From Vicinamibacterales bacterium (lineage in GTDB: Bacteria; Acidobacteriota; Vicinamibacteria; Vicinamibacterales; JAMQPK01), in contig CAWAPZ010000003.1 in the NCBI GenBank assembly GCA_963784045.1, positions 174,143 through 238,142 on the forward strand: a DNA stretch of 64,000 nucleotides, written 5' to 3'. The notes beneath the pieces are model-generated. The model had not been told where the DNA came from and made no database searches. It saw nothing but the letters and a program-made list of their open reading frames with translations. This document shows, in pieces, positions 5,288-57,717 of the stretch (position 1 is the stretch's first letter; each line of letters opens with the position of its first letter). The position numbers were made by a program, and so were the translations under genes.

Positions 5288-8254
5288 ATGCCCCAATCAC
5301 CGGTCGCGACAACGATCAGAGGCGCCACCGACATCGTCGTTCGCGGTGCGCGCACCCACAATTTAAAGAACATCGACCTCGCGCTGCCGCTGGGCCAGCT
5401 GATTATCGTCACCGGCGTGAGCGGCTCGGGAAAGTCATCGCTCGCCTTCGATACCATTTACGCCGAGGGTCAGCGCCGCTACGTCAGCTCGCTGTCGGCC
5501 TACGCGCGGCAGTTCCTCGAACGGATGGAAAAGCCGGACGTCGATCGCATCGAAGGCATTTGCCCGGCGATCGCCATTCGTCAGAAGAACAGCATCCGCA
5601 ATCCGCGTTCGACCGTCGGCACGACCACGGAGATACACGACTATCTCCGGTTGCTCTTCGCCAGAGTCGGCCGGACGCTCTGCCGCCAGTGCGGCCAGGA
5701 GGTCGTACGCGACACGGCCGAAGTCGTCGCACGCCATCTTGGAAGCCTGGCAGGCGGTACCCGGCTGCTCATCGGCTTCGACATGCCCGTGATGGATCCC
5801 GGGGGTGTCCATGAGGGTACTGACGCCGAACCTGAGGAGGAGGATCCCGAATCTGCAGGGACTAGGGACTTGGGATTGGGGATGAGGAATACCGCTCCCA
5901 CGCAGGCTTCGCTGACATTCACGCTCAACGAGCTTCGCAGGAAAGGGTTTCACCGGCTCTACGTCAACGGACGAACGGTGATGGTCGACGACATCAGCCC
6001 GGCCGAGCTGCGCGATCAGTCGACGCTGAAAGTGATCGTCGACCGCATCAAGCTCGAAGGCGATATGCGCGGACGGCTGACCGATTCGGTCGAGCTGGCG
6101 TACCGCGAAGCCGGCGGGACGGCGTTCGCCATCGAAGATCCAGCGGGCTCGCCCGCCGAGGCGCCCCGCGCGAAGGCGGATGCGAAGACGCACGTGTTCA
6201 GCGAGCGGTTCGAGTGTCAGAACTGCAATCTCACCTACGAGGCGCCGCAGCCGCGTCTCTTCTCGTTCAACAACCCCTTCGGAGCGTGCCAGACCTGTCA
6301 CGGGTTCGGCAACATTATCGAGCTCGACCTCGACCTGGTCGTGCCCGATCCATCCAAATCGATCGCGCAAGGTGCGATTGAGCCGTGGACGAAGACGCAC
6401 TATCGCGCCCAACTGGCCGAGCTCAAGCGAGCCGCCAGGCCGGCGGGCGTGTCGATGGACATTCCCTGGCGGGAGCTGAACGACGAAGAGAAGCGCTTCA
6501 TCGTCGAGGGCGACGGGAAAGATTACGATGGCATTCGCGGCTTCTTTCGGTGGCTCGAGCGCAAGAAATACAAAGTCCACGTTCGCGTCTTCCTGAGCCG
6601 GTACCGAGGGTATCTCACGTGCCCTGATTGCGGTGGCGCGCGGTTGCGGCGCGAGGCGCGGGACGTGAAAGTCGGCGGCCGCACGATCGATCAGGTGTCC
6701 TCCGATACTGTGCGCGAGGCGCAGCAATTTCTCGAGGCATTGCGGCTCACGGAGAAAGAAGCGGCGATTGGCGAGAAAGTACTGAAGGAAATTCAGAAGC
6801 GGCTCAAGTTTCTCAGCGACGTGGGCCTGGACTACCTGACGCTCGACCGCCTGTCGTCGACGCTGTCTGGAGGAGAATCGCAGCGGATCAATCTGGCCAC
6901 GTCGCTCGGCTCGTCGCTCGTGGATACCTTATATGTACTCGACGAGCCGTCGATCGGCCTGCACTCGCGAGACAATCTGCGCCTCATCAACATCCTTCGC
7001 CAGCTGCGCGATCAGGGAAATACCGTGCTCGTCGTCGAACACGATGAAGACATGATTCGCGTCGGCGACACGATCGTCGATCTCGGCCTCGGCGCCGGCG
7101 AGCAGGGCGGCCGGGTGGTGTTCGCGGGAACGCTCGCGAACCTTCTGCAGGATCAGCGATCGCTGACCGCTAAATACCTCCGCGGCGATCTTGCGATTCC
7201 GGTGCCGTCGACGCGGCGGCGCGGAAGCGGGCAGAAGATCCGGCTGCTTGGCGCGACCGAGCATAACCTGAAGAACGTCGACGTCGAGATCCCGCTGAAC
7301 ACGCTGACGTGCATCACCGGCGTCAGCGGATCGGGCAAGTCGACGCTTGTCCACAACGTGCTGTATTCCGCGGTCAAACGCGCAAAGGGCGGGTCGGAGA
7401 AGCGCGTCGGAGCGTTCCGCAAGCTCGAAGGCGCCGAGTTCGTCAGCGACGTGGTGCTCGTCGATCAGACGCCGATCGGCCGGACGCCGCGATCGAATCC
7501 GGTGACGTACTTGAAGGCGTTCGATCCAATCCGCGAGATTTTCGCCGCCACGAAGGACGCCAAATCGCGCGGTCTGACGGCGAGCCATTTTTCCTTCAAC
7601 GTGCCCGGCGGACGCTGCGAGGCATGCCAGGGCGAAGGGGAAGTACGCGTCGAGATGCAGTTTCTGGCGGACGTGTTTGTGCCGTGCGATCAGTGCGACG
7701 GCCGGCGCTTCAAGCCGCAGGTGCTGGAAGTGAAATATCGCGCCAAGAACGTCAACCAGGTACTGGACCTCACCGTTCGGGAAGCGTTGACGTTCTTCAG
7801 CACGTCGCCAAAGGTGCTGCGCCGCCTGCAAGTACTCGACGAAATCGGGCTGGGCTACCTGCGGCTGGGGCAGCCCGCAACGACGCTGTCGGGCGGCGAG
7901 GCGCAGCGCATCAAGATTGCGTCTCATCTATCGTCGAGATCCGGCGACCGGATTCTCTACGTGCTCGACGAGCCAACAACGGGTCTGCACTTCGATGACA
8001 TCGCGAAGCTGCTCACGGCATTCAAGAAGCTCATCGAAGCCGGACACACGCTGGTGGTCATTGAGCACAACCTCGACGTGCTGAAGACGGCCGACTACAT
8101 CATTGATCTCGGGCCGGAGGGAGGCCATGAAGGGGGCAAGGTCGTCGCGACCGGTACGCCGGAGCAGATCGCCAAAGCCCCAGGCTCTCACACGGGCGAG
8201 TTTCTCGCGCCCGTTCTCGCCGTGGGACGGTCTCACGCCTATGCGCTTGAATAA
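5288..8254 (+). CDS. uvrA: Excinuclease ABC subunit A
   Basis: 988 aa. Two ABC modules (GVSGSGKSSLAFDT, GVSGSGKSTLV), LSGGE signatures, and Cys4 zinc modules (CQNC..CQTCHG, CPDCGG, CEACQGEG..CDQCDG). Confidence 0.95.
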   Translation: MPQSPVATTIRGATDIVVRGARTHNLKNIDLALPLGQLIIVTGVSGSGKSSLAFDTIYAEGQRRYVSSLSAYARQFLERMEKPDVDRIEGICPAIAIRQKNSIRNPRSTVGTTTEIHDYLRLLFARVGRTLCRQCGQEVVRDTAEVVARHLGSLAGGTRLLIGFDMPVMDPGGVHEGTDAEPEEEDPESAGTRDLGLGMRNTAPTQASLTFTLNELRRKGFHRLYVNGRTVMVDDISPAELRDQSTLKVIVDRIKLEGDMRGRLTDSVELAYREAGGTAFAIEDPAGSPAEAPRAKADAKTHVFSERFECQNCNLTYEAPQPRLFSFNNPFGACQTCHGFGNIIELDLDLVVPDPSKSIAQGAIEPWTKTHYRAQLAELKRAARPAGVSMDIPWRELNDEEKRFIVEGDGKDYDGIRGFFRWLERKKYKVHVRVFLSRYRGYLTCPDCGGARLRREARDVKVGGRTIDQVSSDTVREAQQFLEALRLTEKEAAIGEKVLKEIQKRLKFLSDVGLDYLTLDRLSSTLSGGESQRINLATSLGSSLVDTLYVLDEPSIGLHSRDNLRLINILRQLRDQGNTVLVVEHDEDMIRVGDTIVDLGLGAGEQGGRVVFAGTLANLLQDQRSLTAKYLRGDLAIPVPSTRRRGSGQKIRLLGATEHNLKNVDVEIPLNTLTCITGVSGSGKSTLVHNVLYSAVKRAKGGSEKRVGAFRKLEGAEFVSDVVLVDQTPIGRTPRSNPVTYLKAFDPIREIFAATKDAKSRGLTASHFSFNVPGGRCEACQGEGEVRVEMQFLADVFVPCDQCDGRRFKPQVLEVKYRAKNVNQVLDLTVREALTFFSTSPKVLRRLQVLDEIGLGYLRLGQPATTLSGGEAQRIKIASHLSSRSGDRILYVLDEPTTGLHFDDIAKLLTAFKKLIEAGHTLVVIEHNLDVLKTADYIIDLGPEGGHEGGKVVATGTPEQIAKAPGSHTGEFLAPVLAVGRSHAYALE
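5858..5890. repeat. 7-bp tandem array inside uvrA: GGGACTA GGGACTT GGGATTG GGGATGA GGAAT
   Basis: Read directly. Period 7. Four G-runs of at least 3 with 3-4 nt loops on the mRNA strand. Encodes TRDLGLGMRN. Confidence 0.85.
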
Positions 8255-11877: not shown

Positions 11878-12476
11878 TGGACGTCCCGCTCCGCCAGCCC
11901 GTCCACGGTTGGATCGAAGTGATCACCGGCAGCATGTTCAGCGGAAAAAGCGAGGAGCTTATTCGCCGGCTTCGCCGAGCGCAGATCGCGCGGCAGCGGG
12001 TGCAGATCTTCAAGCCGGCCTTCGACAACCGGTTCGCGGGCTCGGACATCGTCTCGCACAGCGAGATGCGCATACAAGGCGTCAACGTCGGCAGCTCGGC
12101 GGAACTGCTGAGGCTGGTCAACGACGACACCGAGGTGGTCGGCATCGACGAAGCGCAGTTTTTCGACAAGGAGTTGCCGGCCGCCTGCACGCAGCTTGCA
12201 GGCAGCGGCAAACGCGTCGTCGTGGCGGGCCTCGATACCGATTACCTCGGCCGCCCGTTCGAGCCGATGCCGGTCATGATGGCGATTGCCGAATATGTGA
12301 CAAAGACGCATGCCATCTGCATGGTCTGCGGCAATCCTGCGAGCCACACGCAGCGCCTCGTCGTCAGCGATGAGCGGCTTCTGCTCGGCGCGACGGGCAC
12401 TTACGAGGCTCGGTGTCGGAAGTGTTTTGATCCCACGCTGGCATCGGCGGGAAGAGAGATTGAAAGTGAAAAGTAG
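11877..12476 (+). CDS. tdk: Thymidine kinase
   Basis: P-loop [11 protein letters not shown] and a C-terminal zinc-binding pair (CMVCG..., CRKC). The start overlaps the efp stop. Confidence 0.92.
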
Positions 12477-12524
12477 AAAGTGAAAAGTAGAGAGTAGAAA
12501 GTCTAGAGTCCAAATTCCAAAGTC
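12455..12524. repeat. 7-bp tandem array, about 10 units: GAAAGTG AAAAGTA GAAAGTG AAAAGTA GAGAGTA GAAAGTC TAGAGTC CAAATTC CAAAGTC
   Basis: Read directly. Spans the last codons and stop of tdk and ends 5 nt before ATG 12530. Confidence 0.9.
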
Positions 12525-13186: not shown

Positions 13187-13207
13187 CGTGCCGATATGGG
13201 AAGGCAT

Positions 13208-14065
13208 ATGGCAGCACGAGCAACCTGGAAGGGCTTTCTCAAGGTCAGCCTGGTGAACATTCCGATCAAGGTGTTCCCGGCCACCGAGTCAAGCGGCACG
13301 CTCTCGTTCAACCAGCTTCACGGCGAGTGCCAGACCCGTATTCAGCAGAAGCGATGGTGCCCGACCTGTAATAAGGAGGTCGCCAACACCGAGCTCGTGA
13401 AGGGTTACGAGTTCGAAAAGGGGCGGTACGTCGTCATGACGGAGGACGACATCGAGAAGGTGCGTCCAACGTCCACACGCGTCATCGACCTCGTCCAGTT
13501 CGACGACGCCGGGTCCCTCGACCCGATGTACGTGGATCGGACGTACTACCTCGCGCCTGATGGGCAGGTGGCAGCCGACGCATTCGCCGTCTTCAGCGAG
13601 GGAATGAAAGGCAAGATCGGCGTCGGTAAGCTCGCGCTTTACGGGCGCGAATACCTCGTCGCGGTAAAACCGCACGACCGGGGCCTCGTGATGTACACGC
13701 TCCATCATGCCGCTGAGATCCGCGGCACCGAAAGCATCGAAGAGCTCGCCACGATCCCGACCAAGGTGAAGCCCCAGGAAGTGCAGCTGGCCAAGCAGGT
13801 CATCGCGACATTCGAGAAAAAGCTCGATCTGAACGAGTATCGCGACGAGTACCGTGAGGGCCTTCAGCACATCATCGACGCGAAGGTCGCAGGCGAAGAA
13901 TTCGTCGCGCCGGCTGTGGAGATGCCCGCGAAGGTCGTGAATCTGATGGAGGCGCTCAAGAAGAGCCTCGACACGGTGAGCGCCAACAAGAAGCCCGCCG
14001 CGAAGGCAGATCTGAAGGTGGTCAAAAAGGGTAAAAGCGCGGAGCCGAAACGTCGGCGAGCATAG
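13208..14065 (+). CDS. ku: Ku protein (non-homologous end joining)
   Basis: MAARATWKGFLKVSLVNIPIKVF is the typical bacterial Ku N-terminus. Basic C-terminal tail. SD-like GGGAAGG lies 3 nt upstream of ATG 13208. Confidence 0.9.
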   Translation: MAARATWKGFLKVSLVNIPIKVFPATESSGTLSFNQLHGECQTRIQQKRWCPTCNKEVANTELVKGYEFEKGRYVVMTEDDIEKVRPTSTRVIDLVQFDDAGSLDPMYVDRTYYLAPDGQVAADAFAVFSEGMKGKIGVGKLALYGREYLVAVKPHDRGLVMYTLHHAAEIRGTESIEELATIPTKVKPQEVQLAKQVIATFEKKLDLNEYRDEYREGLQHIIDAKVAGEEFVAPAVEMPAKVVNLMEALKKSLDTVSANKKPAAKADLKVVKKGKSAEPKRRRA

Positions 14066-19412: not shown

Positions 19413-20251
19413 ACGAGTTGCCTCCTTCATCCTCCGACTTCGAGTCCGCGCCGGACGCCTACTCGGTGAAGCTCGATTCCTTCGAAGGCCCCCTCGATCT
19501 CTTGATTCACCTGATCAAGAAGAACGAGGTGAACATCTACGACATCCCTATCGCCCTCATCACCCGGCAGTATCTCGAGTACATCGAGATGATGAAGGAG
19601 CTGAATCTCGATACGGTCGGCGAGTTCCTGGTGATGGCGGCGACGCTGATTCACATCAAGTCGAAGATGCTCCTGCCGCGGCCGGAATCGGCCCAGGAAG
19701 GCGCGCCCGAGGAGGATCCGCGCGATGCGCTGGTGCGCCGGCTCCTGGAACACCAGAAGTTCAAAGCCGCCGCGGAGCTGCTCCACGAGCGCGCCGTGTT
19801 GCGCGGCGCGCAATGGATTCGTCCGGACGGGCGCATCGCCGAGATTGCCGGCGACGAGTACGCCTACGAGCCGGAGGTCGAAGTCGATCTCTTCAGCCTG
19901 CTCGCGGCGTTCCGCGGCGTCCTCGAGCGAGCCAAGCAGCGGCCGAAAATGCTGCTGCCGCCCGAGGAAGTGCCAGTCGAGGTCCGGATCGATCAGCTGC
20001 TTGCGATGCTCTCCGAAACCGAAGCGTGCGGCTTCGAGGATCTGTTTGCGAAGGATGACTCGCGCGGTGGAATGATCGTGACATTTCTCGCGCTGCTCGA
20101 GATGATCCGCCTGAAATTGATACGTGTCTTTCAGACGATGGCATTCGGACCGATTCGGGTCTATAAGAGAGCGCGGCCGGTTGACGCACCGGTGCCGATT
20201 GGCGATCCTGAGGCAGTTAAAAACGAAAAACGAAAAGCGGAAAACGAATAA
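19409..20251 (+). CDS. scpA: Segregation and condensation protein A
   Basis: FEGPLDLLIHLIKKNEVNIYDIPIA is the typical ScpA N-terminus. Followed by scpB. Confidence 0.9.
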   Translation: MNELPPSSSDFESAPDAYSVKLDSFEGPLDLLIHLIKKNEVNIYDIPIALITRQYLEYIEMMKELNLDTVGEFLVMAATLIHIKSKMLLPRPESAQEGAPEEDPRDALVRRLLEHQKFKAAAELLHERAVLRGAQWIRPDGRIAEIAGDEYAYEPEVEVDLFSLLAAFRGVLERAKQRPKMLLPPEEVPVEVRIDQLLAMLSETEACGFEDLFAKDDSRGGMIVTFLALLEMIRLKLIRVFQTMAFGPIRVYKRARPVDAPVPIGDPEAVKNEKRKAENE

Positions 20252-20270
20252 CGAACAGCGAAAACGAACC
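20219..20270. repeat. 7-bp tandem array, about 7 units of AAAACGA type
   Basis: CGA/GCG recurs at 20224, 20231, 20238, 20245, 20252, 20259 and 20266. Covers the scpA C-terminal codons and stop. Confidence 0.9.
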
Positions 20271-20312
20271 GATTCTAGATTCCAGATTCCCGATTCCAGA
20301 TTCCAGAGTCAA
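20271..20312. repeat. 7-bp tandem array: GATTCTA GATTCCA GATTCCC GATTCCA GATTCCA GAGTCAA
   Basis: Read directly. Abuts the AAAACGA array. Lies upstream of scpB. Confidence 0.92.
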
Positions 20313-21564: not shown

Positions 21565-22365
21565 CTAGTCTCTTGTTCTCTTGTTCGTCTTTCTGGTATG
21601 CGAATCTGAGGGTTGTGAACGCCTCCCGGCGTGCTTGAGCTTCCGCACTTCCTCCGTCGTGAGTTCCCTGTAACTCCCAACCCTCAGATTCTTGTCGGCG
21701 ATGGGGCCGATGCGGACGCGTTTGAGGGTTCGAACGGGATGGCCGATCGCGTCGGCCATCTTGCGGACCTGGCGCGTGCGGCCTTCGTGAATTGTGACGC
21801 GCAAGACCGACGTGTCCGCATCAGTGCGCCGCTCCCGCAGCAGTTCGACGTTCGCGGGACTCGTCCGGCGGCCTTCGATGACGATGCCGCGCGCGAGACG
21901 ATCGATGTCGTGCGCATCAGGAACGCCGAGCACCTGCGCCTCGTACACGCGCTCGACCTCGTGTCTCGGATGCATCAGCATGGCGGCGAGATCGCCGTCG
22001 TTGGTGAGAAGCAGCAGCCCTTCGGAATCGAAGTCAAGGCGTCCGACGGGATACACATACTCCCGCACGCCCTTCAGGAGATCGAGCACCGTCGGCCTGT
22101 GCTCAGGATCGGATCGCGTGGTGACGTAGCCTCGCGGCTTGTTGAGGAGGAGATATCGATGCCGCTGCGGTTGCTTGATGCGGCGTTCGTCGACGCGGAT
22201 GTCATCTGTATCCGGATCGGCCTTTGTGCCGAGCTCGGTAACCGTTGCGCCGTTGACCTGAACGCGCCCTTCTTCGATGAGCTTCTCAGCCGCGCGTCGG
22301 GACGCGACCCCTGCGGCGGAGATGATCTTTTGCAGCCGGACTTCTACCATGGCGAAATCTTTCAT
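21565..22365 (-). CDS. rluB: Pseudouridine synthase, RsuA/RluB family
   Basis: S4 domain (RLQKIISAAGVASRRAAEKLIEEGRV) and catalytic motif GRLDFDSEGLLLLTNDG. The start is ATG 22365 or 22350. The longer ORF to 22539 overlaps the upstream gene and is rejected. Confidence 0.85.
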   Translation of the reverse strand: MKDFAMVEVRLQKIISAAGVASRRAAEKLIEEGRVQVNGATVTELGTKADPDTDDIRVDERRIKQPQRHRYLLLNKPRGYVTTRSDPEHRPTVLDLLKGVREYVYPVGRLDFDSEGLLLLTNDGDLAAMLMHPRHEVERVYEAQVLGVPDAHDIDRLARGIVIEGRRTSPANVELLRERRTDADTSVLRVTIHEGRTRQVRKMADAIGHPVRTLKRVRIGPIADKNLRVGSYRELTTEEVRKLKHAGRRSQPSDSHTRKTNKRTRD

Positions 22366-23080: not shown

Positions 23081-23779
23081 TTGCTCGGATATACTCCGAA
23101 CGTGTCCTCTCGTCGTCTCATCATCGCGATCGACGGCCCTTCGGGCGCCGGAAAAGGGACGGTTGCGCGCGAGATTGCGCGCCGCCTCGATTACAAGCAT
23201 CTCGACACCGGCGCGATGTACCGGGCCGTCGCCTGGAAGGCGCTGCGCGATCGATTGCCGCTCGATGATGAAGATGCCATGGCCGATCTCGCGCAGCGTG
23301 CGGCGCTCGACGTCGGACCTGCCGCCGTTCTCATCGACGGCCACGACGTGACGAGCGCGATTCGCACGCCGGAAATCGATCGTGCGTCCGCGGCCGCGGC
23401 GCGCCTGCCGAAAGTGCGCGCGGTGCTCGTCGAGCGTCAGCGCCAGCAAGGCGCGCACGGCGGCATCGTCATGGAGGGGCGCGATATCGGATCGGTCGTC
23501 TTTCCGAACGCCGACGTGAAGATCTACCTCGACGCGTCTCCGGAGGAGCGGGCGCGCCGACGTGCCGCCGATCCGGCGCACGGAATCAATCGGGCAGCTG
23601 CCGCCGCGGATGTCGCAGCCGAGATGGCGGCGCGCGACCGATCGGATCGCACGCGCTCGACGTCGCCGCTGACCATCCCGTCGGACGCCGTCCCGCTCGA
23701 TACGAGCGGGCTGTCGATCGAGGACACCGTCGAACAGGTGCTGGCGATCGTCACGCGTGCGATGTCCGCCCCGCGGTGA
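23081..23779 (+). CDS. cmk: Cytidylate kinase
   Basis: IAIDGPSGAGKGTVAREIA...LDTGAMYRA. Alternative GTG start at 23102. Confidence 0.92.
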   Translation: MLGYTPNVSSRRLIIAIDGPSGAGKGTVAREIARRLDYKHLDTGAMYRAVAWKALRDRLPLDDEDAMADLAQRAALDVGPAAVLIDGHDVTSAIRTPEIDRASAAAARLPKVRAVLVERQRQQGAHGGIVMEGRDIGSVVFPNADVKIYLDASPEERARRRAADPAHGINRAAAAADVAAEMAARDRSDRTRSTSPLTIPSDAVPLDTSGLSIEDTVEQVLAIVTRAMSAPR

Positions 23780-24482
23780 TCGTCGGAGTGGGACCGCCGC
23801 TCCACGTGAACCGGTAGGTTTTTCCCCGACGAACGTTGGCTACGAGCGCGGGCCGGAAGCAGGCCACGCACGTGCCGCCGGCATGCCGGACGCTGGGATA
23901 TATCACGCCTAGAGAGTCCGCCTCGAGAAGGCGCTCGGCCAGCGCCTGAGACTCGACGTAGCTGTCAGGATCGAGATATGCGCGCATCCGGGAAAGGTCC
24001 GACGTGTCCGCCGCAGCGCTGTGCGCGGAGGCGGATCGAAGGTCGTGAAACGATGCGCTGAAGTCGCAGCGGTAGTCATCGTAGGTGACCGTATCTTCGA
24101 AGCGGCCAATCTCCGCGAGTTCAACTGTCTTGTGGAAGCCCACTTCCGCCTGCGAAGTCTCGAGCGCAAACGCGGCGTACCAGGCGCCGCGCCCCGGTCC
24201 GTTGAAGCGGCTGCCGAGCGGATGCGGGTGACAAAAGGCCGCGTTGATGACGGACGCATGCGGAACCGCACTCACCAGTTCCTCGACGCCGATGCCCGGC
24301 AGCCGCTGCCGCGACGCAAGCAGGCGGTCGTTCGTCGCCGCATCCAGCTCGAAAATCGCCTGCAGATGCGCGTCGTCGTCGCTGATGGCGACGAGCACGC
24401 TGTCGCTGTGCGGCAGATGCCGTGAGAGTACGAGCCGGTGGGTATCGAACTGGCGGACGAGCGCGACCGGCGGACCCGTCAT
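23751..24482 (-). CDS. RES-domain toxin (ParT/MbcT-like NAD+-targeting toxin)
   Basis: R-E-S triad context: GSRFNGPGRGAWYAA, ETSQAEV, YPSVRHAGGTCVACF. ATG 24482 overlaps the antitoxin stop as ATGA. Confidence 0.85.
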   Translation of the reverse strand: MTGPPVALVRQFDTHRLVLSRHLPHSDSVLVAISDDDAHLQAIFELDAATNDRLLASRQRLPGIGVEELVSAVPHASVINAAFCHPHPLGSRFNGPGRGAWYAAFALETSQAEVGFHKTVELAEIGRFEDTVTYDDYRCDFSASFHDLRSASAHSAAADTSDLSRMRAYLDPDSYVESQALAERLLEADSLGVIYPSVRHAGGTCVACFRPALVANVRRGKTYRFTWSGGPTPTITAGRTSHA

Positions 24483-24919
24483 CCCGAGCGGCGCGCGTCT
24501 AGCAGACGTCGCACGGTCTGCATCGCGGGCAGACCGCCGCGGATCATGTACCCGAGCGGCGTGTCGCCGGCGAAGATCGGATTGGTGTTCGGCAGGCGCA
24601 CCCACTCGTCCGCGAGCTTGCGCGAGTGAAGGATGTGCAGCGCTTTGAAAATGCCGATGAGATAGGAAATGCGCGTGAGCCGGTCGGTATCGAGCATCCG
24701 ATCGGGCTTGCGCTTCATTTCATAGAAGGGGCCGTTTGTGACTCCGCCGAGCAGGGCGCGGGCATCTTCATCGCGCACTTTCCAGCGCGTGGCGATGTTG
24801 AAAAACGCCTTCAGGCCGGGCGCGGACAAACGCTCGCGCACGGCCCGTGTACTGAGGTCGGGTGGGGATTCCGTCTGGTAGCGGCTGGCGGGGTACCGCA
24901 GGACCTGTGCCATCATCAA
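24479..24919 (-). CDS. Xre/ParS/MbcA-type antitoxin (DUF2384 C-terminal toxin-binding domain)
   Basis: Motifs RISYLIGIFKAL and PNTNPIFAGDTPLGYMIRGG..RRLLD. Likely real start is ATG 24913, 6 nt after an AGGAG. Confidence 0.85.
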   Translation of the reverse strand: MMMAQVLRYPASRYQTESPPDLSTRAVRERLSAPGLKAFFNIATRWKVRDEDARALLGGVTNGPFYEMKRKPDRMLDTDRLTRISYLIGIFKALHILHSRKLADEWVRLPNTNPIFAGDTPLGYMIRGGLPAMQTVRRLLDARRSG

Positions 24920-28212: not shown

Positions 28213-28255
28213 GATCCCCAATCCCCAATCCCGAATCCCTGATCCCCAATCCCGT
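28213..28255. repeat. 7-bp tandem array, C-rich on the + strand: GATCCCC AATCCCC AATCCCG AATCCCT GATCCCC AATCCCG
   Basis: Read directly. Fills the ihfB/HIT spacer up to ATG 28257. Confidence 0.92.
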
Positions 28256-34990: not shown

Positions 34991-35067
34991 CTGAACCTGG
35001 AATCTAGAAACTAGAATTTGGGAACTAGAATCTAGAAACTGAAATCTGGGAACGGAATCCAAAAACA
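34991..35067. repeat. 7-bp tandem array, 11 units: CTGAACC TGGAATC TAGAAAC TAGAATT TGGGAAC TAGAATC TAGAAAC TGAAATC TGGGAAC GGAATCC AAAAACA
   Basis: Read directly. Begins 1 nt after the DUF4159 gene stop. Confidence 0.92.
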
Positions 35068-35300
35068 GGCAACTCGATCCTCGCTACCGGCTACAAGCTA
35101 CCAGCTGGTGTACACTATAAGGACCGCTCAGAAGAGCGCGTGGAAAGGCCGCTAAGCCATTGCCTGAGGAGTCAATCTGCCTTTGCGGTGAAGCCGCTAC
35201 GGCGCGATGGGCGGAAGGGCGCGAACTGAATAGGCCGCGGCCGGGAGGTGCTCAAACGCATGGCTAAATCTACGGTGATTCGCAAGTAGCACGTCTTCAG

Positions 35301-35345: not shown

Positions 35346-36979
<1,634 letters not shown>

Positions 36980-36983
<4 letters not shown>

Positions 36984-37035
36984 ACCTGGAATCTAGAATC
37001 TAGAATCTAGAATCTGGAATCTAAAATCTAGAACT
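36980..37035. repeat. 7-bp tandem array, 8 units: CTGAACC TGGAATC TAGAATC x3 TGGAATC TAAAATC TAGAACT
   Basis: Read directly. Occupies the whole spacer between the two mutase subunit genes. Confidence 0.95.
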
Positions 37036-41811: not shown

Positions 41812-42594
41812 ATGCTATTAGCCATTGACGTCGGCAATACCAACATCGTGCTCGGCGTGTTCGAGGGCGAGCAGCTCGTGGAGAGCTGGCGTCTGGCGAC
41901 TCTGCGCGAGCGCACGTCCGACGAGATCGGCATCTGGGTCGCGCAGCTCTTGCAGCACCGTATGATCGATGTTGACAAGGTGACCGGCATCGTCATGGGA
42001 TCGGTGGTGCCGCCTTTGACGAGCACATTCATGACGATGGCCCAGCGCTATTTCGGCATGCGGCCGTTGAATGTGGACAGCGCGGTCGACACGGGAATGC
42101 CCATCCTGTACAAGAATCCCGCGGAGGTGGGCGCCGATCGTCTTCTCAACGGCGTCGCCGCATTCCGTCTGTACGGACGCGAGCGCCGCGCGCCGACGAT
42201 TGTCGTCGATTTCGGTACTGCCACGACGTTCGACGCCATTTCCGCAAAAGGGGAATATCTCGGCGGCATCATTACTCCGGGCATGCAGATTTCCGCCGAT
42301 GCGCTCTTTCAGCGCGCCGCTCGGCTGCCGCGTGTCGACATCAAGAAGCCGTGCGAGGTGATTGGGCGGACCACGGTCGGCGCAATCGAATCGGGTCTCT
42401 ATTACGGGTACGTCGGGTTGGTGGACGGCCTCGTCCGACGCATGCGCGACGAGCTCGGTCAGAATGCGGTCTGTATCGCGACGGGCGGACTGGCAGGGGT
42501 CATTGCCCCGGAAGTGGAGCTCATCGAGCACGTCGACGCGGATTTGACGCTCCAGGGATTGAGAATGGTGTGGGAGAGAAACAGACCCCGTTGA
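41812..42594 (+). CDS. coaX: Type III pantothenate kinase
   Basis: MLLAIDVGNTNIVLGVF and GADRLLN. The birA-coaX adjacency is typical. Confidence 0.92.
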   Translation: MLLAIDVGNTNIVLGVFEGEQLVESWRLATLRERTSDEIGIWVAQLLQHRMIDVDKVTGIVMGSVVPPLTSTFMTMAQRYFGMRPLNVDSAVDTGMPILYKNPAEVGADRLLNGVAAFRLYGRERRAPTIVVDFGTATTFDAISAKGEYLGGIITPGMQISADALFQRAARLPRVDIKKPCEVIGRTTVGAIESGLYYGYVGLVDGLVRRMRDELGQNAVCIATGGLAGVIAPEVELIEHVDADLTLQGLRMVWERNRPR

Positions 42595-42741
42595 GCGGGG
42601 CCAGCCGCCCCGAGATGGACACAGACGAGTACCTGCCGGGAGATCGAAGCCTACCTCTGCCGCAAGAACGACGGCCACCTGATCAGAATCGTCGGACCTT
42701 CTTTCGAGCGTGTCCGCAGCTGGTCCGCACAAGGCGTTCCA

Positions 42742-43323
42742 TTGAAGATCGCGTGCCAGGGCATCGACGCCTACTTCGTGAGGTACTACGCCAAGGGGGT
42801 TCGGCGCCGGCCGGTACAGATTGATTTCTGCGAGAACGACATCCTTGATGCCTTCGATGCCTGGCGCCGCGCCGTCGGCGTGCGCCTTCCTGGCGCAGAA
42901 GAGATGCCGGCAGAGAACCAAAGCAGGCGGCGCAAGCGAAGTCTGCCCGAACATCTGGATCGTGTGTGCGAGCGCGTTACGGCGCGGCGTGCCGGCATGA
43001 CGCCGCCTCCTCCCGAGTTTGATGGGGTGCTGGACATGATCGCTCGGGAAGCGGCGGCCTTTCGCGATCAGCCGGGACCGTTGCGTGGAGAAACGCGGGA
43101 ACGGATTATGGCGCGCCTCGCCGAGTTGGATCGCCTGATGCTCGACGCCGCGCGCGCGCAGGCGGATCCGGCGGCCGTTCAGGCGATGCGTATTGAAGCC
43201 TCGACGCAGCTGCTGCCGTTCCGCGAACGCATGGCGGCCGAGACGTACGGGCGCGCGATCGAAGCGGCGGTCGACCGTCTGTTGCGCGAGCGCGAACATC
43301 TGCCCGTTGTGGCGTTTGGCTAG
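42742..43323 (+). CDS. Conserved hypothetical protein. The minimal TTG-start model is given here; coding signal extends upstream to about 42637, with a candidate ATG at 42615 in another frame (see findings).
   Basis: High third-position GC continues upstream of 42742 in the same frame (REIEAYLCRKNDGHLIRIVGPSFERV...) without any ATG, GTG or TTG. Confidence 0.55.
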   Translation: MKIACQGIDAYFVRYYAKGVRRRPVQIDFCENDILDAFDAWRRAVGVRLPGAEEMPAENQSRRRKRSLPEHLDRVCERVTARRAGMTPPPPEFDGVLDMIAREAAAFRDQPGPLRGETRERIMARLAELDRLMLDAARAQADPAAVQAMRIEASTQLLPFRERMAAETYGRAIEAAVDRLLREREHLPVVAFG

Positions 43324-43433
43324 CGCATTTTCGATTTCGCTGTAGTTGATGTAGGCCGGGTCCTTCGGACCCGGCAGCGGAGGCGGGTCGGCACGACCCG
43401 CTCTACGTACTACAGCGAAATCGAAAATGCTCT
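43322..43433. repeat. Structured element bounded by inverted repeats (MITE-like or ncRNA-like)
   Basis: A 22-nt perfect inverted repeat (43325-43346 versus 43409-43430) encloses two perfect GC hairpins: GCCGGGTCC-TTC-GGACCCGGC and GCGGGTCG-GCA-CGACCCGC. Confidence 0.85.
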
Positions 43434-43442
43434 AGGTGGTAG

Positions 43443-43486
43443 GGGAGAGATGAGAGCGGAGAGCCGAGACTAAGCGCCGAGAGCTA
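43443..43486. repeat. 7-bp periodic GAGAG-type array
   Basis: GAGAG/GAGAC at 43445, 43452, 43459, 43466 and 43479. Abuts the methyltransferase stop. Confidence 0.65.
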
Positions 43487-44740
43487 CGTCGTAAGCACCG
43501 CCAGCGTCTCGACGTGGGCGGTGTTCGGAAACAGATCGAACGCTTCGAGGTGCTCGAGCCGGTAGCCGGCCTCCGAGAATCGTTTGACGTCCCGGGCGAG
43601 CGTGGCGGGATCGCACGATACGTACACCACCCGCGGGGTTTTCAGGCCGATGATGCCCGACATCGCCTCGGTCGAGATCCCCGTCCTGGGCGGATCGAGC
43701 AGCAGCGTGCCAGGCCGCTGAAGACCGCGCCGCGTCAGGTAACTTTCAACCGAAAGATGCTGAACGTGCGTCGCGGCGCCATAAGGCGCCGCATTGGATT
43801 CGAGATCGCGCGCGCTCGAACGGTCGCCCTCGACCGCCACAACCTGAGTGTTTCCTCGGGCTGCGAGCGAAACGGAGAACAGGCCCACGCCGGCATATAA
43901 CTCCGTCACCGTGCCGGCCGGAACCTGTGCGAGTACTTGCGTCACGAGCTCTGGCAGCAGGTGACGATTGCCCTGAAAGAACGACTGCACGTGGTGGGTC
44001 ACCGCGATCGACGCGTCGTACACGGGAATCAGGTCGCAGACATATGGCGAGCCGTACGAGACCGTCATGTGTCCCTGTTGATGATCGATGAACAGCAGCC
44101 CAGAAATGCCCTCAATCGGATCGATGAGGTCAGGTCTGGCGGCCGACGGCGCTAACTCCAGCAGCACCGCCCGTTCGGTTGCGGCGGCGTTCTCTGAAAG
44201 CTCGCACGACGTGACCGCGACGCTGTGCAGGGCGCGCTCGAGCCGCCGCAGCGCATCCATGGAATCGGGCAACAACTGTTGCGTTAGCGCCGCGTCGCAG
44301 AGATCGTGAGTGCCTTCGCGGAAATATCCGAGCTTTCCCTCTCGCGCGTGAAGACGAGCCCGCATGCGATAGCCCTCTTCCCTGGAGGCACGGACGACGA
44401 CCTCCGCGGCGAGTGTCATTTTGGCGATGCGTGCAAATGCGTCGGCGATCACTTCCGACTTCAGCTGACGCTGGCGCTCGTACGCGATGTGCGCATACAG
44501 AGATCCACCGCACGCCCAATCGACATCGGCCGCTCTTCGATCGGGGCTCGGATCGAGGATGGCGACGACGTTTCCAAACGCGAGTTGTTTCTGAATGCGA
44601 TCGATGCGCACACGTGCGCGCTCTCCGGGGATCGCGCCGGCGACGAAGACAATCTGTCCTTCGTGCCGCGCGAGCATGCGCCCGCCGGCGACCGGCTTCT
44701 CGATCGTTGAAATAATTTCGTCGTGGAGTTTAAGAGGCAT
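43484..44740 (-). CDS. Class I SAM-dependent RNA (uracil-5-)methyltransferase, TrmA/RumA family, with TRAM-like N-terminus
   Basis: 418 aa. SAM motifs ELYAGVGLFS and LLLDPPRTG; catalytic region VVYVSCDPATLARD. Confidence 0.88.
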   Translation of the reverse strand: MPLKLHDEIISTIEKPVAGGRMLARHEGQIVFVAGAIPGERARVRIDRIQKQLAFGNVVAILDPSPDRRAADVDWACGGSLYAHIAYERQRQLKSEVIADAFARIAKMTLAAEVVVRASREEGYRMRARLHAREGKLGYFREGTHDLCDAALTQQLLPDSMDALRRLERALHSVAVTSCELSENAAATERAVLLELAPSAARPDLIDPIEGISGLLFIDHQQGHMTVSYGSPYVCDLIPVYDASIAVTHHVQSFFQGNRHLLPELVTQVLAQVPAGTVTELYAGVGLFSVSLAARGNTQVVAVEGDRSSARDLESNAAPYGAATHVQHLSVESYLTRRGLQRPGTLLLDPPRTGISTEAMSGIIGLKTPRVVYVSCDPATLARDVKRFSEAGYRLEHLEAFDLFPNTAHVETLAVLTT

Positions 44741-44793: not shown

Positions 44794-45471
44794 TCAGCGG
44801 GTCTCGGCTGCTTTCACGAATTCCTCGAACAGCGAGCGGAACTCGCCCGTCCGCCAGAAGTTCTCGGGGTGCCACTGCACCGCGATACAGAAACGACTCG
44901 CGGGGCGCTCGATCGCTTCGATGACGCCATCGGGCGCGGTCGCGGAGACGGTGAATCCTCCTTCGGTCTTGTCGACGGCCTGGTGATGGCGGCTGTTGAC
45001 CTGGAGTACTTCGCCGTCGACGAGCTCTTCCTGCATGACGCGCGCGAGCACGCTGCCGGGCGTGACCCAAACCTCGTGCGCGATCGCGAACGGCGGGGCA
45101 TCGACCTGATGGCCGAGCGCCTGGTTCACCTGCGCCGGAATGTCCTGCGTGAGTGTTCCGCCGGCGGCGACGTTGACGACCTGTAGTCCGCGGCACACCG
45201 CGAGCAGCGGCGTGTTGCTTGCGAGCGCAAGCTTCGCAAGCGCAAGCTCGAACGCGTCGCGCGCCGCGTCAGGTTCGTTCGTCTTTGGATGTCGCGTGTC
45301 GCCGTAGTGGGCGGGGTCGATGTCGCCGCCGCCGGTAAAGAGCACGCCGTCGAGACCGTCGAGTGTGGGCGCTGCATCCATCGAAAGGACACGCGGGTCG
45401 CCGCCGGCCCGCCGAATGGATTCGACGTAGTCGGTCAACCGGTTGGATGGCGTGATGCCGATGACGGCCAT
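44794..45471 (-). CDS. Class I glutamine amidotransferase / gamma-glutamyl-GABA hydrolase family (peptidase C26)
   Basis: LAVCRGLQVVNVAAGGTL, VNSRHHQAV and VQWHPE. Confidence 0.85.
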   Translation of the reverse strand: MAVIGITPSNRLTDYVESIRRAGGDPRVLSMDAAPTLDGLDGVLFTGGGDIDPAHYGDTRHPKTNEPDAARDAFELALAKLALASNTPLLAVCRGLQVVNVAAGGTLTQDIPAQVNQALGHQVDAPPFAIAHEVWVTPGSVLARVMQEELVDGEVLQVNSRHHQAVDKTEGGFTVSATAPDGVIEAIERPASRFCIAVQWHPENFWRTGEFRSLFEEFVKAAETR

Positions 45472-47537
45472 TACATTCTCGGTGGTACGGCAATGCCCAT
45501 GAGATCAAGCGCGCGCGTCAGCTGCGCACGCACGTACGCCACGCCGGCGGCGCGCCAGAGCCGGGCGGCCGCCTGCTCCTCGTTGAGGATCGGATACCGA
45601 TGATAAAAGCCGTTGAACATCTGTGCCAGCCCGAACGCGTATTTTGCGAGCACCGAGAACTCCAGCGTCCGAACGACTTGCTCGACGATTTCATCGAGGC
45701 GCGAGGCTTCGAGGATGAGCGCCCACAAATCATGGCTGCCTCCCTCGCCAGTCAGCTCGGCAGCGTCGATCTCGCCAAGCGTCGCAAACACCGCGGCTTC
45801 GTCGACCTTGTCGCGGTCGCGCAGCTTGGCCAAAATGTTCTGGGCCCGAACGACAGCATACTGTAGATACGGGCCGCTTTCACCCTCGAACGCGAGGGCT
45901 TCGTCTATATCGAAGGCAATGATCTTCGTGCGCGAATACTTCACCATGAAATAGCGCACCGCGGCGACCGCGATCATGTCGGCGATGCGCCGATGCTCCC
46001 CGGTGGCGAGCTCTGAATTGCGCCTGGCCACTTCGGTTTCGGCGCGCGCGATGAGGGTGTCCAGCAGGTCATCGGCCTTCACGCCCTGTCCCTTGCGACC
46101 CGACACATCGACGAACCCGCGCTTGTCATCGGCCGCATCGGCGGCGAGGTATCCGAGCGCTCGCGCTGCAGCGTTCGAGAGTGCCACCATTTCGTACGAG
46201 AAGTGCGTTGCCCGCTCGGCTTGCTCGGCGTAGCCAAGAGTCCGAAGCGCCTGTTTCAGGAGCTTCTGAAGATACGATTGCCGCACATCGATGACGTTGT
46301 AGGTCGCGTCGGCGCGGCCGAATGGGGGATGCGAAGCATCCCCGGGTGTCTGCGAAGTCGACCACAGGACTTCGCCGTTTGTCCGGGTTCCGAACCGGCA
46401 ATAGTAGAAGTCGCGCCCCAACAGCCCGAGCTTCCAGAACTGATAGGCGATGTCCTTGCCGACGTACGTAACGGTGCCGTTCGATCGGACAATAACCTTT
46501 TCGCGTTCGCTTTCTCCGCTTTCCCTAATCCCTAATCCCTCATCCCCAATCCCTAGTCCAGCATCTCCAATCCCTAATCCCACATCCCCAATCCCTTCAG
46601 AGGCAGGCTCGTCCTCCTCGATCTTCATGACCCAGCAACCAGCCAGTTTGCCTTCAGTCTGGAAATACACCGCGCCTTTCTCTTTCAAGATCTCGAAGGC
46701 CCGCGCCCAGAACTGCAGCCGCAGAATGTGGCCTTCCCACGTCAGAAGGTCGTAATCCACGTTCAGCCGCGCCATCGTCTTCAGGTGGCATCGGACGATG
46801 CGTTCGGCGATGAACGCGGCAATGTCTGAGGTCGCCGTGCCGCCGTGCTCGATATCGTGCAACGTCGCCGTGCGAATCTTGAGGCGCTCTTTGTCTTCGT
46901 CGTACCACTGCGTAACGCGCGCGTAGAGATCCCAGCAGTAATAGTCGAACCGCGTCGAGTCCGCGATGGCGCGGATGTCCTCGATCGTCTTGTCTTCGAG
47001 CTCGCGAAATCCGACGACGACGTCGGCCACCTGGACGCCGGTGTCGTCGATGTAGTTCTGCACCTCGACGGGAACGCCTCGGAAGCGCTGCACGCGTACG
47101 AGCGTGTCGCCCAGCGCGGCATTGCGAATATGGCCGATGTGCGCCGCCTTGTTCGGGTTGATGGCCGTGTGCTCGACGATGGCTTTTTGGGGTCTGACCC
47201 CCGTACCGGTACGGGGGTCAGACCCCGATGGCACGACTTTCTTGACGAAGGCGATGCGATCTAAATAGATGTTCAGGTAGCCGTTCGGCGCGGCCTCGAC
47301 GCGAACGACGCCGTCCAGAGGCCCGAGGGCCGCAGCGAGCTCCTGTGCGATGACGCGCGGCGCTTTGCGCAGGCGGCGCGCAAGCTCGAAGGCCACGGGC
47401 GTTGCGAGATCGCCGAGCTCGCGCTTCGGCGGATATTCGATCGGCAGTTGTGGCAGTGCGTCAGGCGGCACCTGATAAAGGTGCTGAAGCGTCGTCGATA
47501 ACCGCTCTCGCAACTGTTCGTGAATTGGAAGAATCAT
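45471..47537 (-). CDS. argS: Arginine--tRNA ligase, carrying two unusual in-frame inserts
   Basis: 688 aa. HIGH-type motif NPNKAAHIGH; class I core; C-terminal anticodon-binding domain ending in M. Confidence 0.93.
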   Translation of the reverse strand: MILPIHEQLRERLSTTLQHLYQVPPDALPQLPIEYPPKRELGDLATPVAFELARRLRKAPRVIAQELAAALGPLDGVVRVEAAPNGYLNIYLDRIAFVKKVVPSGSDPRTGTGVRPQKAIVEHTAINPNKAAHIGHIRNAALGDTLVRVQRFRGVPVEVQNYIDDTGVQVADVVVGFRELEDKTIEDIRAIADSTRFDYYCWDLYARVTQWYDEDKERLKIRTATLHDIEHGGTATSDIAAFIAERIVRCHLKTMARLNVDYDLLTWEGHILRLQFWARAFEILKEKGAVYFQTEGKLAGCWVMKIEEDEPASEGIGDVGLGIGDAGLGIGDEGLGIRESGESEREKVIVRSNGTVTYVGKDIAYQFWKLGLLGRDFYYCRFGTRTNGEVLWSTSQTPGDASHPPFGRADATYNVIDVRQSYLQKLLKQALRTLGYAEQAERATHFSYEMVALSNAAARALGYLAADAADDKRGFVDVSGRKGQGVKADDLLDTLIARAETEVARRNSELATGEHRRIADMIAVAAVRYFMVKYSRTKIIAFDIDEALAFEGESGPYLQYAVVRAQNILAKLRDRDKVDEAAVFATLGEIDAAELTGEGGSHDLWALILEASRLDEIVEQVVRTLEFSVLAKYAFGLAQMFNGFYHRYPILNEEQAAARLWRAAGVAYVRAQLTRALDLMGIAVPPRM
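46523..46599. repeat. 7-bp tandem array inside argS, 11 units: CCCTAAT CCCTAAT CCCTCAT CCCCAAT CCCTAGT CCAGCAT CTCCAAT CCCTAAT CCCACAT CCCCAAT CCCTTCA (+ strand)
   Basis: Read directly. The G-rich strand is the argS mRNA. Encodes GIGDVGL GIGDAGL GIGDEGL GIRE. Confidence 0.95.
47189..47226. repeat. Perfect 38-nt palindrome (19+19) inside argS
   Basis: GGGGTCTGACCCCCGTACC / GGTACGGGGGTCAGACCCC. The arms are exact reverse complements with no spacer. Confidence 0.95.
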
Positions 47538-56579: not shown

Positions 56580-57717
56580 GTGGCCATCGCACTCGATGAT
56601 TTGACCCGCAAATATCAGGACCTCGTGAAGCGCGCCGCCGATCTCCGGAGTTATCTTTGAGGCCGCTCGCCCCGGTGACGAGCTCGCACAGATAGAAGCC
56701 CGCGCATCGGCGCCAGATTTCTGGAACAACCAGATCGAAGCGCAGAAGATCCTTCAGCGCCGGCGGCGCGTCGAGGAAGAAGTCGAGCTGATCGCCGCGC
56801 TCGCAGCGAAAACAGACGACCTGGGTGTGCTCATCGACTGGGCCGGCCAGGGTGAAGACGTGTTTGCTGAGCTATCGGCCGGCCTCGAGCAGCTCGCCGG
56901 CCTCGTCGAAGGCGGGGAGATCAAGAAGATGCTCGGCGGCGAGCACGACAGGAAGAACGCCATCATCACGATTCATCCGGGCGCCGGAGGAACGGAGTCG
57001 CAGGACTGGGCCGAGATGTTGCTGCGGATGTATATGCGATGGATCGAGCGGCGAGGGTTCAAGCGCGATGTCATCGACTATCAGCCGGGTGACGAGGCCG
57101 GTCTCAAAAGCGCGACGGTGACTGTGCAGGGCGAGTTTGCATTCGGTTTGCTCTCGGCCGAGGCAGGCGTGCATCGGCTCGTGCGCATCTCGCCGTTCGA
57201 CTCCGCCGCACGCCGCCACACGTCGTTCGCCTCCGTCTATGTATGGCCGGAGCTGCCGGAGGACGAGGACATTGTCATCGACGACAAGGACATCCGCATC
57301 GACACGTTTCGGTCGAGCGGCGCCGGCGGCCAGCACGTCAACGTGACCGATTCGGCCATTCGCATCACGCACCTGCCGACCGGCATCGTCGTATCGTGCC
57401 AGAACGAACGGTCGCAGCATCGTAACAAGGATTCCGCGATGCGGGTGCTGAAAGCGCGCCTGTTCGATATCAAGATGAAGGAGCAGCAGTCAAAGCTCGA
57501 TCAGATCGGCGGCGCGAAAAAAGAAATCGCGTTCGGCCATCAGATTCGCAGCTACGTGCTGCATCCCTATCAGATCGTGAAGGACCACCGCACGAAGTTC
57601 GACATCGGCGATCCCGGCCGCGTCCTCGACGGCGATCTGGATCCGTTCATCAAGGCGTACCTGATGCAGAAGGCATCCGGTACGTTAGGGCAGCCTTCGG
57701 CGGAGGACGACGAGTAA
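56580..57717 (+). CDS. prfB: Peptide chain release factor 2, expressed via a programmed +1 frameshift: join(56580..56657, 56659..57717)
   Basis: GTG 56580 follows GGAGG. Frame-0 ORF of 26 codons ends CGG AGT TAT CTT TGA G. The +1 frame continues with DFWNN..., SPF-type domain 2, and GGQHVN (GGQ). Confidence 0.92.
56646..56661 (+). promoter_or_regulatory. prfB: RF2 programmed +1 frameshift site (SD-like GGAG, then UAU CUU UGA G)
   Basis: CGG AGT TAT CTT TGA G matches the canonical CUU UGA slippery/stop context with an upstream SD-like element. Confidence 0.85.

Follow-up and report, generated by a model that had tools for sequence, protein, structure and literature searches.

A 64,000-nucleotide stretch of contig CAWAPZ010000003.1 from a Vicinamibacterales bacterium of the phylum Acidobacteriota (hereafter the window) carries, between two convergent genes, a strongly palindromic element of 108 bp that is absent from the same position in five related contigs. 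On balance, the element is probably a non-autonomous, palindromic mobile unit of the miniature inverted-repeat transposable element (MITE) type, which would be moved in cut-and-paste fashion. Judged by its sequence it is a composite, with a doublet of the repetitive extragenic palindromic (REP) kind lying inside AT-rich, MITE-like terminal repeats, and it appears to unite the structural hallmarks of MITEs with those of GTAG-tagged REP dimers. It is a new and rare MITE/REP-like palindromic element of a poorly studied phylum, and not a new kind of system.

Evidence for insertion comes from comparison with five contigs that share the gene order of the window (L065, L066, L067, L096 and L097), among them L065, L066 and L067 with DNA identities to the window of 95.5%, 93.4% and 88.6%, respectively, over ~21 kb. 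Read in the orientation of the rlmD gene, the orthologous site in all five is ...CTAG|CCAAACGCC... (CTAC in L067) and the element is missing, whereas the window reads ...CCTACCAC-CTAG-(108 bp)-CTAG-CCAAACGCC... at the same site. CTAG thus stands on both sides of the insert and singly in the relatives, as expected of a MITE with a target-site duplication and empty sites. The five empty sites, set beside the arrangement CTAG, 108 bp and CTAG in the window, indicate a clean insertion that appears to be recent, dating from after the split from relatives with DNA identities of 93-95%; its arms are still perfect. Across a four-way alignment of the 21 kb the element is the sole sizeable insertion specific to the window. 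The spacers between the same two genes measure 27-69 bp in the relatives and hold no comparable hairpin, and the remainder of the window's spacer is a fast-evolving tract of heptamer repeats that is also found in the relatives. Since the duplication restores the upstream gene's stop codon (TAG), neither coding sequence has been touched. The window copy does not separate a duplicated CTAG from a duplicated TA, because CTAG is its own reverse complement; in the latter case the element would be 110 bp long.

A true second copy, reached through an exact 18-mer of the arm, lies on the 253-kb contig CAVUTO010000006.1 of a Vicinamibacterales metagenome-assembled genome (L028), where it reads CTAG-AGCGTTTTCGATTTCGCTGTAGT-ACGTAGG-(hairpin)-CTCCGTT-(hairpin)-CTACATCAAC-TGCACCGAAATCG.... 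Over 102 nt the copies show 94% identity, and none of their six differences falls within the 34 hairpin-stem bases; in the second hairpin unit only the loop and a stem-adjacent base are altered. The locus is unrelated to that of the window, with a 115-aa gene following lepA-lepB on one side and a convergent DivIVA gene on the other, and the element lies there within the remnant of a DUF167 gene, its distal arm lacking the outer ~8 nt. This second copy at an unrelated locus makes the element a dispersed repeat, which, on such sequence evidence, is most likely mobile. Core genes of L028 and of L079, a contig from the same sample as L066, differ by 16% in DNA (host lineages ~84% identical). A match of 94% in a non-coding element, compared with ~84% for the hosts, means that the copies either share an ancestor more recent than that of their hosts or are under strong constraint, and either way the element would seem to be a discrete transferable unit.

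Next to the full copy in L028 lies a partial member of the family (7228-7286), which consists of a variant self-complementary arm (AGCGTTTCAACAACGCTGTAGT), GTAG and the hairpin TCCGCC-TTCA-GGCGGA, and whose outer end lies exactly against TAG, the 115-aa gene's stop codon. Each of the four ends that can be observed in the family touches TA, three within CTAG and one within ATAG. The DUF167 (YggU-like) gene between the DivIVA and 115-aa genes is intact in L078, L080 and L093 and lost in L079 and L095, while the contigs L090 and L092 end inside it. The original prediction, made from the letters of the window, had offered a MITE as one of two alternatives, and that alternative is strengthened by five precise empty sites, a duplicated CTAG or TA, repeats that reach the junction and a second copy of 94% identity. 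Of the search for copies that it had proposed, the empty sites and the target duplication were forthcoming, whereas only one further copy was.

No other short-range inverted repeat in the window is as strong as that of the element. Its 22-nt terminal repeats had been described as perfect, and the left arm, GCATTTTCGATTTCGCTGTAGT, is indeed matched by its exact reverse complement on the right; with up to three mismatches allowed, the window has these two matches to it and no more, the expectation from shuffles being zero. If one mismatch is admitted, the inverted repeat lengthens to 27 nt. The original prediction counted three pairs beyond that mismatch where there are four, formed by the CTAG palindromes of the duplicated target, outside the element proper. 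Counted from TA, the terminal repeat is 24 nt long with one mismatch, within the ~15-30 bp found at the very ends of MITEs. The arms were rightly called AT-rich (41% G+C, against ~64% around them). These repeats of 22-24 bp start with 5'-G(C/A)GC(A/G)TTTTCGATTTCGCTGTAG, the ends of the window element reading 5'-G(C/A)GCATTTT if TA is taken as the duplication. A size of 108-110 bp and a lack of coding capacity also agree with MITEs (70-300 bp). No open reading frame (ORF) is contained within the element, the one open frame on each strand has neither a start codon nor protein relatives, and the translated open frames, compared with 5.8 billion proteins in case mis-called ORFs covered other copies, gave no match.

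Enclosed by the arms are the GTAG/CTAC helix, the hairpin with TTC and the hairpin with GCA that had been proposed (positions in Table 1). Hairpin 1 has a perfect 9-bp stem closed by the triloop TTC, and the C(UUCG)G-type loop once assigned to it would force a C-A mismatch. Hairpin 2 reads GCGGGTCG-GCA-CGACCCGC on the plus strand. GTAG stands 0-1 nt 5' of each GC hairpin, each on its own strand, and recurs at the inner end of both arms. The original prediction had recognised neither these tags, which give the core the look of a REP/BIME doublet, nor CTAG as the target that takes in the upstream stop codon. The two units so tagged form a head-to-head inverted pair 7 nt apart that is 78% complementary over 23 nt, the stem differences being compensated; GTAG at the end of a short GC-rich palindrome and pairing of the units in inverted orientation are both properties of REPs. 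For the 126-nt region a fold of -82.2 kcal/mol is predicted on the plus strand (z = -11.8) and one of -76.7 kcal/mol on the minus strand (z = -11.5), with no shuffle as low on either.

The location between convergent genes and the want of a U-tract, both part of the earlier description, hold: on neither strand is a hairpin succeeded by a T-run, which an intrinsic terminator would require, and no promoter-like site was found at the element. Like intrinsic (Rho-independent) terminators, the element places GC-rich hairpins just downstream of convergent genes; unlike them, it lacks a U-tract on both strands, folds into a three-way structure of 116 nt and is an insertion absent from relatives. The covariance-model search suggested for a known RNA family gave no match, since nothing in the window reached the gathering score of any Rfam 15 model and a local search at E <= 10 returned nothing meaningful; the best sub-threshold match was to a plant miRNA-precursor model (19.8 bits, where the gathering score is 77.5). 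The 12-mer said to link the element with the rpsA-ihfB spacer does exist there, at 27784-95, but the link is one of chance, the 12-mer being one of three such matches in the window, each with E = 1.

If the element is a cut-and-paste MITE, a transposase encoded elsewhere would recognise the terminal repeats and mobilise it in trans, pasting it into the TA inside the CTAG that held TAG, the stop codon of the gene upstream. As the staggered cut was repaired, TA or CTAG would be duplicated, so that the stop codon is rebuilt and both genes are left undamaged. The enzyme would probably be of the DDE class, IS630/Tc1-like if TA was duplicated and IS5-like if CTAG was. Described MITEs measure 70-300 bp, have terminal repeats of 15-30 bp, lie beside genes and fold in RNA (PMC3733652), and duplication of TA is a hallmark of the IS630/Tc1-mariner family (PMC2170065). 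The tetranucleotide CTAG is ~7-fold under-represented in this genome (33 observed, 217 expected) and occurs mainly at stop codons and within the heptamer arrays of intergenic DNA; a target preference for it would be expected to steer insertions to gene ends, where they are tolerated. Such a preference is known for IS630, and a 4-bp duplication of CTAG or, more generally, YTAR is characteristic of insertion sequences and MITEs of the IS5 group. The element resembles the IS5 group in having CTAG to either side of the insert and a single CTAG at the empty sites; it departs from that group in that the L028 partial member abuts ATAG, that its ends are unlike those known for IS5 and that no IS5-like gene was found.

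The Correia (NEMIS) elements of Neisseria and the pneumococcal RUP elements are MITEs of the IS630/Tc1-mariner type that occur in tens to hundreds of copies per genome. The present element is like them in being ~100-150 bp long and non-coding, in its terminal inverted repeats of ~25 bp, in its insertion at TA with duplication, in its place beside or between genes and in a transcript that would form a long hairpin. It is unlike them in having only two verified copies in all the data searched, in its core of a GTAG-tagged hairpin doublet and in the lack of any sequence similarity. Read-through transcripts from either neighbouring gene are predicted to fold into a three-way structure with a 27-bp stem, which could block 3' exonucleases, serve as a substrate of RNase III or impede converging polymerases.

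Several findings weigh against a MITE of this kind. The palindromic nature of CTAG makes a true duplication indistinguishable from a target tetranucleotide combined with an element-borne CTAG, as in insertion of the IS200/IS605 type, and at the L028 site the relatives have AGAG or GGAG where L028 has CTAG. The GTAG tags point to another class of transposase. No transposase gene was seen in the window, where Pfam annotation of the ORFs gave housekeeping genes only, nor did an insertion sequence with matching ends turn up, the scans with the 18-mer and the 20-mer yielding no transposase-bearing locus. Copy number is very low: short-word BLAST detected one copy in the window and none other in ~200-300 kb of related loci, L028 holds the sole real match to the arm 18-mer among 185,579 species-representative genomes, and the arm 20-mer led to no certain copy in JGI metagenomes, where it occurred at three loci (L075, L076 and L077). 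The remaining 63 of the 64 exact 18-mer matches were single chance matches in coding DNA of unrelated phyla. Such exact-word scans would miss copies, or a partner element, with diverged arms.

Covariance model R1, built from both copies and run over ~300 kb of the window and acidobacterial loci, recovered these two copies; its other matches were weak (E 0.05-1) and fell on an unrelated palindrome within argS. A BLASTN search of PLSDB plasmids with the element produced no match, and the nine matches of the arm 18-mer in IMG/VR viral contigs were all due to chance, in coding DNA. Among the metagenomic loci, L075 was rejected as a copy, the 20-mer falling by chance inside a C5-methyltransferase gene. 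L076 and L077 represent the same region, in which an arm-like 20-mer lies between tRNA-Sec and selD and after it come GTAG, two different GC hairpins and CTACATCAAC; this additional similarity is weak, with p ~0.017 from shuffles and a score equalled by one of 72 chance controls, R1 misses the region, no transposase was found around L077 and the locus was not counted as a copy. In that region (L076 5253-5470, equivalent to L077 540-760) heptamer-like repeats (AATCGAAAAT / ATTTTCGATT) that form a 10-nt inverted repeat stand on either side of the tRNA-Sec gene, and a CCTCAAC array follows the GC hairpins just upstream of selD, which has an in-frame TGA; G+C of the host is ~56%. The verified family therefore comprises two copies, in two genomes and at unrelated loci, together with the one L028 partial unit, and in everything searched it is rare and of low copy number. 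No integron attC features were apparent either, inspection of the element ends revealing no RYYYAAC or GTTRRRY core sites and the flanks being syntenic housekeeping genes, not cassettes.

The hairpin doublet invites a different view of mobility, in which a tyrosine (HUH) transposase of the REP-associated tyrosine transposase (RAYT) or TIRYT kind moves the GTAG-tagged pair as single-stranded DNA, after the manner of bacterial interspersed mosaic elements (BIMEs) or REPINs; the AT-rich arms would be accessory and CTAG a target or cleavage tetranucleotide, not a duplication. This is a credible though rather unlikely account. It draws on the GTAG 5' of each hairpin and at the inner arm ends, on hairpins that are inverted relatives with compensated stem differences, and on the partial unit beside the full L028 copy, composed of variant arm, GTAG and one hairpin; that relatives have no CTAG where L028 has one also fits a CTAG carried by the element. 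GTAG tags, head-to-head dimers and a place between convergent genes are described features of REPs (PMC3733652), whose GTAG-tagged dimers typically lie between convergent or co-directional genes and are sometimes nested in longer palindromes, as in Anabaena variabilis (Di Nocera et al., 2013, PMC3733652). The element shares with such dimers (BIMEs/REPINs) its short GC-rich hairpins next to GTAG, the inverted head-to-head pair, the short spacer and the convergent setting, and with the nested dimers of A. variabilis the embedding of the doublet in a longer AT-rich palindrome. It differs in its very low copy number, its apparent target duplication, hairpin stems that are perfect where those of REP dimers are imperfect, and the lack of a RAYT or TIRYT gene nearby: neither the window nor the related loci fetched contain a Y1/HUH transposase. 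REP families normally reach tens to hundreds of copies per genome, yet no further REP-like unit was detected in the 64 kb (29 intergenic segments) or in ~300 kb of relatives, and perfect 22-nt terminal repeats that reach the junction, with CTAG placed symmetrically outside them, are explained more simply by cut-and-paste transposition.

Two further explanations turn from the transposase to the palindrome itself. The element may have been selected as an RNA or DNA structure, for example as a U-tract-independent bidirectional terminator, a 3' hairpin that stabilises RNA or an RNase III site, with mobility as the delivery route only; this would be compatible with the other readings and is improbable as the principal explanation. 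Points in its favour are a fold of extreme stability on either strand, the location of the two verified copies, each between convergent genes, and the six substitutions between them, all of which avoid the 34 stem positions; roles of this sort in RNA are also known for MITEs and REPs (PMC3733652). Five relatives nevertheless keep the same gene pair with short spacers and no comparable hairpin, neither an Rfam match nor a promoter-like site nor a T-run is present, and 0 of 6 substitutions in stems is not statistically compelling. Alternatively, template switching or hairpin-primed repair could have built the palindrome locally from the heptamer-repeat spacer with no transposition at all. The intergenic spacers of this genome are rich in fast-evolving heptamer arrays, the arms have a heptamer-like rhythm (ATTTTCG ATTTCGC) and the L065 spacer at the site contains TTTCGCT repeats, but no part of the 108 bp occurs in any relative's spacer and its exact boundaries are flanked by CTAG. 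A 94%-identical copy at an unrelated locus in a different genome effectively excludes such a local de novo origin, which we regard as very improbable indeed.

Finally, the DDE transposase of the favoured cut-and-paste MITE reading might be replaced by an enzyme specific to the phylum. Acidobacteria encode a distinct group of tyrosine transposases flanked by terminal inverted repeats (TIRs; PMC3733652), and a long shot is that a REP doublet with GTAG tags and the TIRs around it make up a hybrid module, which homes to TAG stop codons and is moved by these TIR-associated enzymes. The idea of homing to stop codons arises because two independent insertions of the family, that in the window and the L028 partial unit, abut a gene's TAG exactly. 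If true, the element would be a mobile, stop-codon-targeting cassette carrying a bidirectional RNA hairpin or insulator.

Table 1. Positions in the window of the palindromic element, its parts, the adjoining genes and other features mentioned in the text.
Feature	Position	Strand	Remarks
Left copy of duplicated target CTAG	43320..43323		includes the upstream gene's stop codon, TAG (43321-23); single CTAG in relatives (CTAC in L067), followed by antisense CCAAACGCC
Inserted element, 108 bp	43324..43431		absent at the orthologous site of L065, L066, L067, L096 and L097
Alternative extent of element if TA is duplicated, 110 bp	43323-43432		
Left terminal inverted repeat GCATTTTCGATTTCGCTGTAGT	43325..43346	+	41% G+C; ends in GTAG
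Right terminal inverted repeat	43409..43430	-	exact reverse complement of the left repeat
Inverted repeat extended to 27 nt	43320-43346 / 43409-43435		one mismatch
GTAG/CTAC helix	43351-54 / 43403-06		
REP-like unit 1: GTAG and hairpin GCCGGGTCC-TTC-GGACCCGGC, no gap	43351..43375	+	identical in the L028 copy
Stems of hairpin 1	43355-63 / 43367-75		
REP-like unit 2: GTAG-A-GCGGGTCG-TGC-CGACCCGC, read on the minus strand	43383..43406	-	inverted, partly co-varying relative of unit 1
Stems of hairpin 2	43383-90 / 43394-401		
Right copy of duplicated target CTAG	43432..43435		
Pre-existing spacer of GGAGAGC-type heptamer repeats	43444..43484		outside the element; present, variable, in relatives
Type III pantothenate kinase (coaX)	41812-42594	+	
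Upstream flanking hypothetical gene	42742..43323	+	no Pfam or NCBIfam family; stop TAG 43321-23 kept after insertion
TRAM-domain RlmD-type 23S rRNA m5U methyltransferase (rlmD)	43484..44740	-	convergent; stop codon 48 nt from the right CTAG
Heptamer arrays	12462-12502, 13151-74, 14066-86, 20219-20307, 28214-53, 35000-35106, 36977-37033, 41783-804, 43444-84, 61863-93, 63912-51		
argS	45471-47537	-	
In-frame (GGGATTR)n array in argS	46522-46596		
Palindrome in argS, 38 nt	47189-47226		
Inverted repeat, 17 nt	21602-21691		
Release-factor ORF	56827-57717		
RES-domain toxin ORF	23751-24605		
Ku gene	13196-14065		

The closest homologues of the RlmD protein encoded by the convergent gene come from soil metagenomes, and those that are named belong to Vicinamibacterales (Acidobacteriota); they argue against a source in Burkholderia, which the G+C content had suggested. 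On the other side of the element, the hypothetical gene is called with 250 aa in the relatives, overlapping the end of coaX; in the window this 250-aa frame has a stop near 42589 and its first possible start is the TTG at 42742. The difference at 42571-42741 could be a true truncation, another start or a sequencing error.

About one-third of the intergenic spacers in the window are tandem heptamer arrays, with a strong lag-7 self-match and a lower G+C content. Their units include GAAAGTA, AAAAACG, GATTCCA, ATCCCCA, AATCTAG, GGAGAGC and TAGGGAT, and both unit and length vary between close relatives. The arrays resemble cyanobacterial short tandemly repeated repetitive (STRR) sequences and the TAACTGA repeats of Beggiatoa; a literature search turned up no report of such heptamer arrays for Acidobacteria. 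One array lies in frame within argS, where (GGGATTR)n with a 21-nt super-period encodes ...EGIGDVGLGIGDAGLGIGDEGLGIRE..., and the same type of unit makes up the intergenic arrays at 28214 and 63912. Its copy number is ~10.7 units in the window and falls through L065 and L066 to the shortest form in L067. In L065 and L066 argS is called as two ORFs, the break in L065 coinciding with the array.

The same gene holds, also in frame, the perfect 38-nt palindrome GGGGTCTGACCCCCGTACCGGTACGGGGGTCAGACCCC to which R1 gave its weak matches; it is kept in L065 and L066, while the L067 version is 6 nt longer. Each half carries GGGGTCAG, fitting the motif GGGGWSAS that has been reported for TIRs of tyrosine transposases (PMC3733652). 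A GGGTC/GACCC hairpin core is common to this palindrome and the two hairpins of the element, and the window contains five such hairpins against 0.64 expected. Elsewhere, a 17-nt inverted repeat (94% complementary; GAATCTGAGGGTTGTGA / TCCCAACCCTCAGATTC, arms 56 nt apart) lies at the 3' end of the pseudouridine synthase ORF; adjoining it are TCTCTTGT repeats and, at the stop codon, a CTAG. In the release-factor ORF the match to the PCRF domain is confined to the later part of the profile (positions 81-194), a pattern suggestive of the usual prfB frameshift upstream; nothing convincing came of a search for the canonical frameshift site. The window also contains an ORF for a RES-domain toxin and a Ku gene.

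The Vicinamibacterales are abundant, almost uncultured soil bacteria, and little is known of their mobile DNA. A recent insertion documented by empty sites provides a strain marker, and its terminal repeat is a first sequence handle by which the transposase may be sought. Were the hairpin to act on converging transcripts, the element would be an instance of transposition bringing a regulatory structure to a gene's end. For now it counts as an ordinary kind of element, found in an unusual host.

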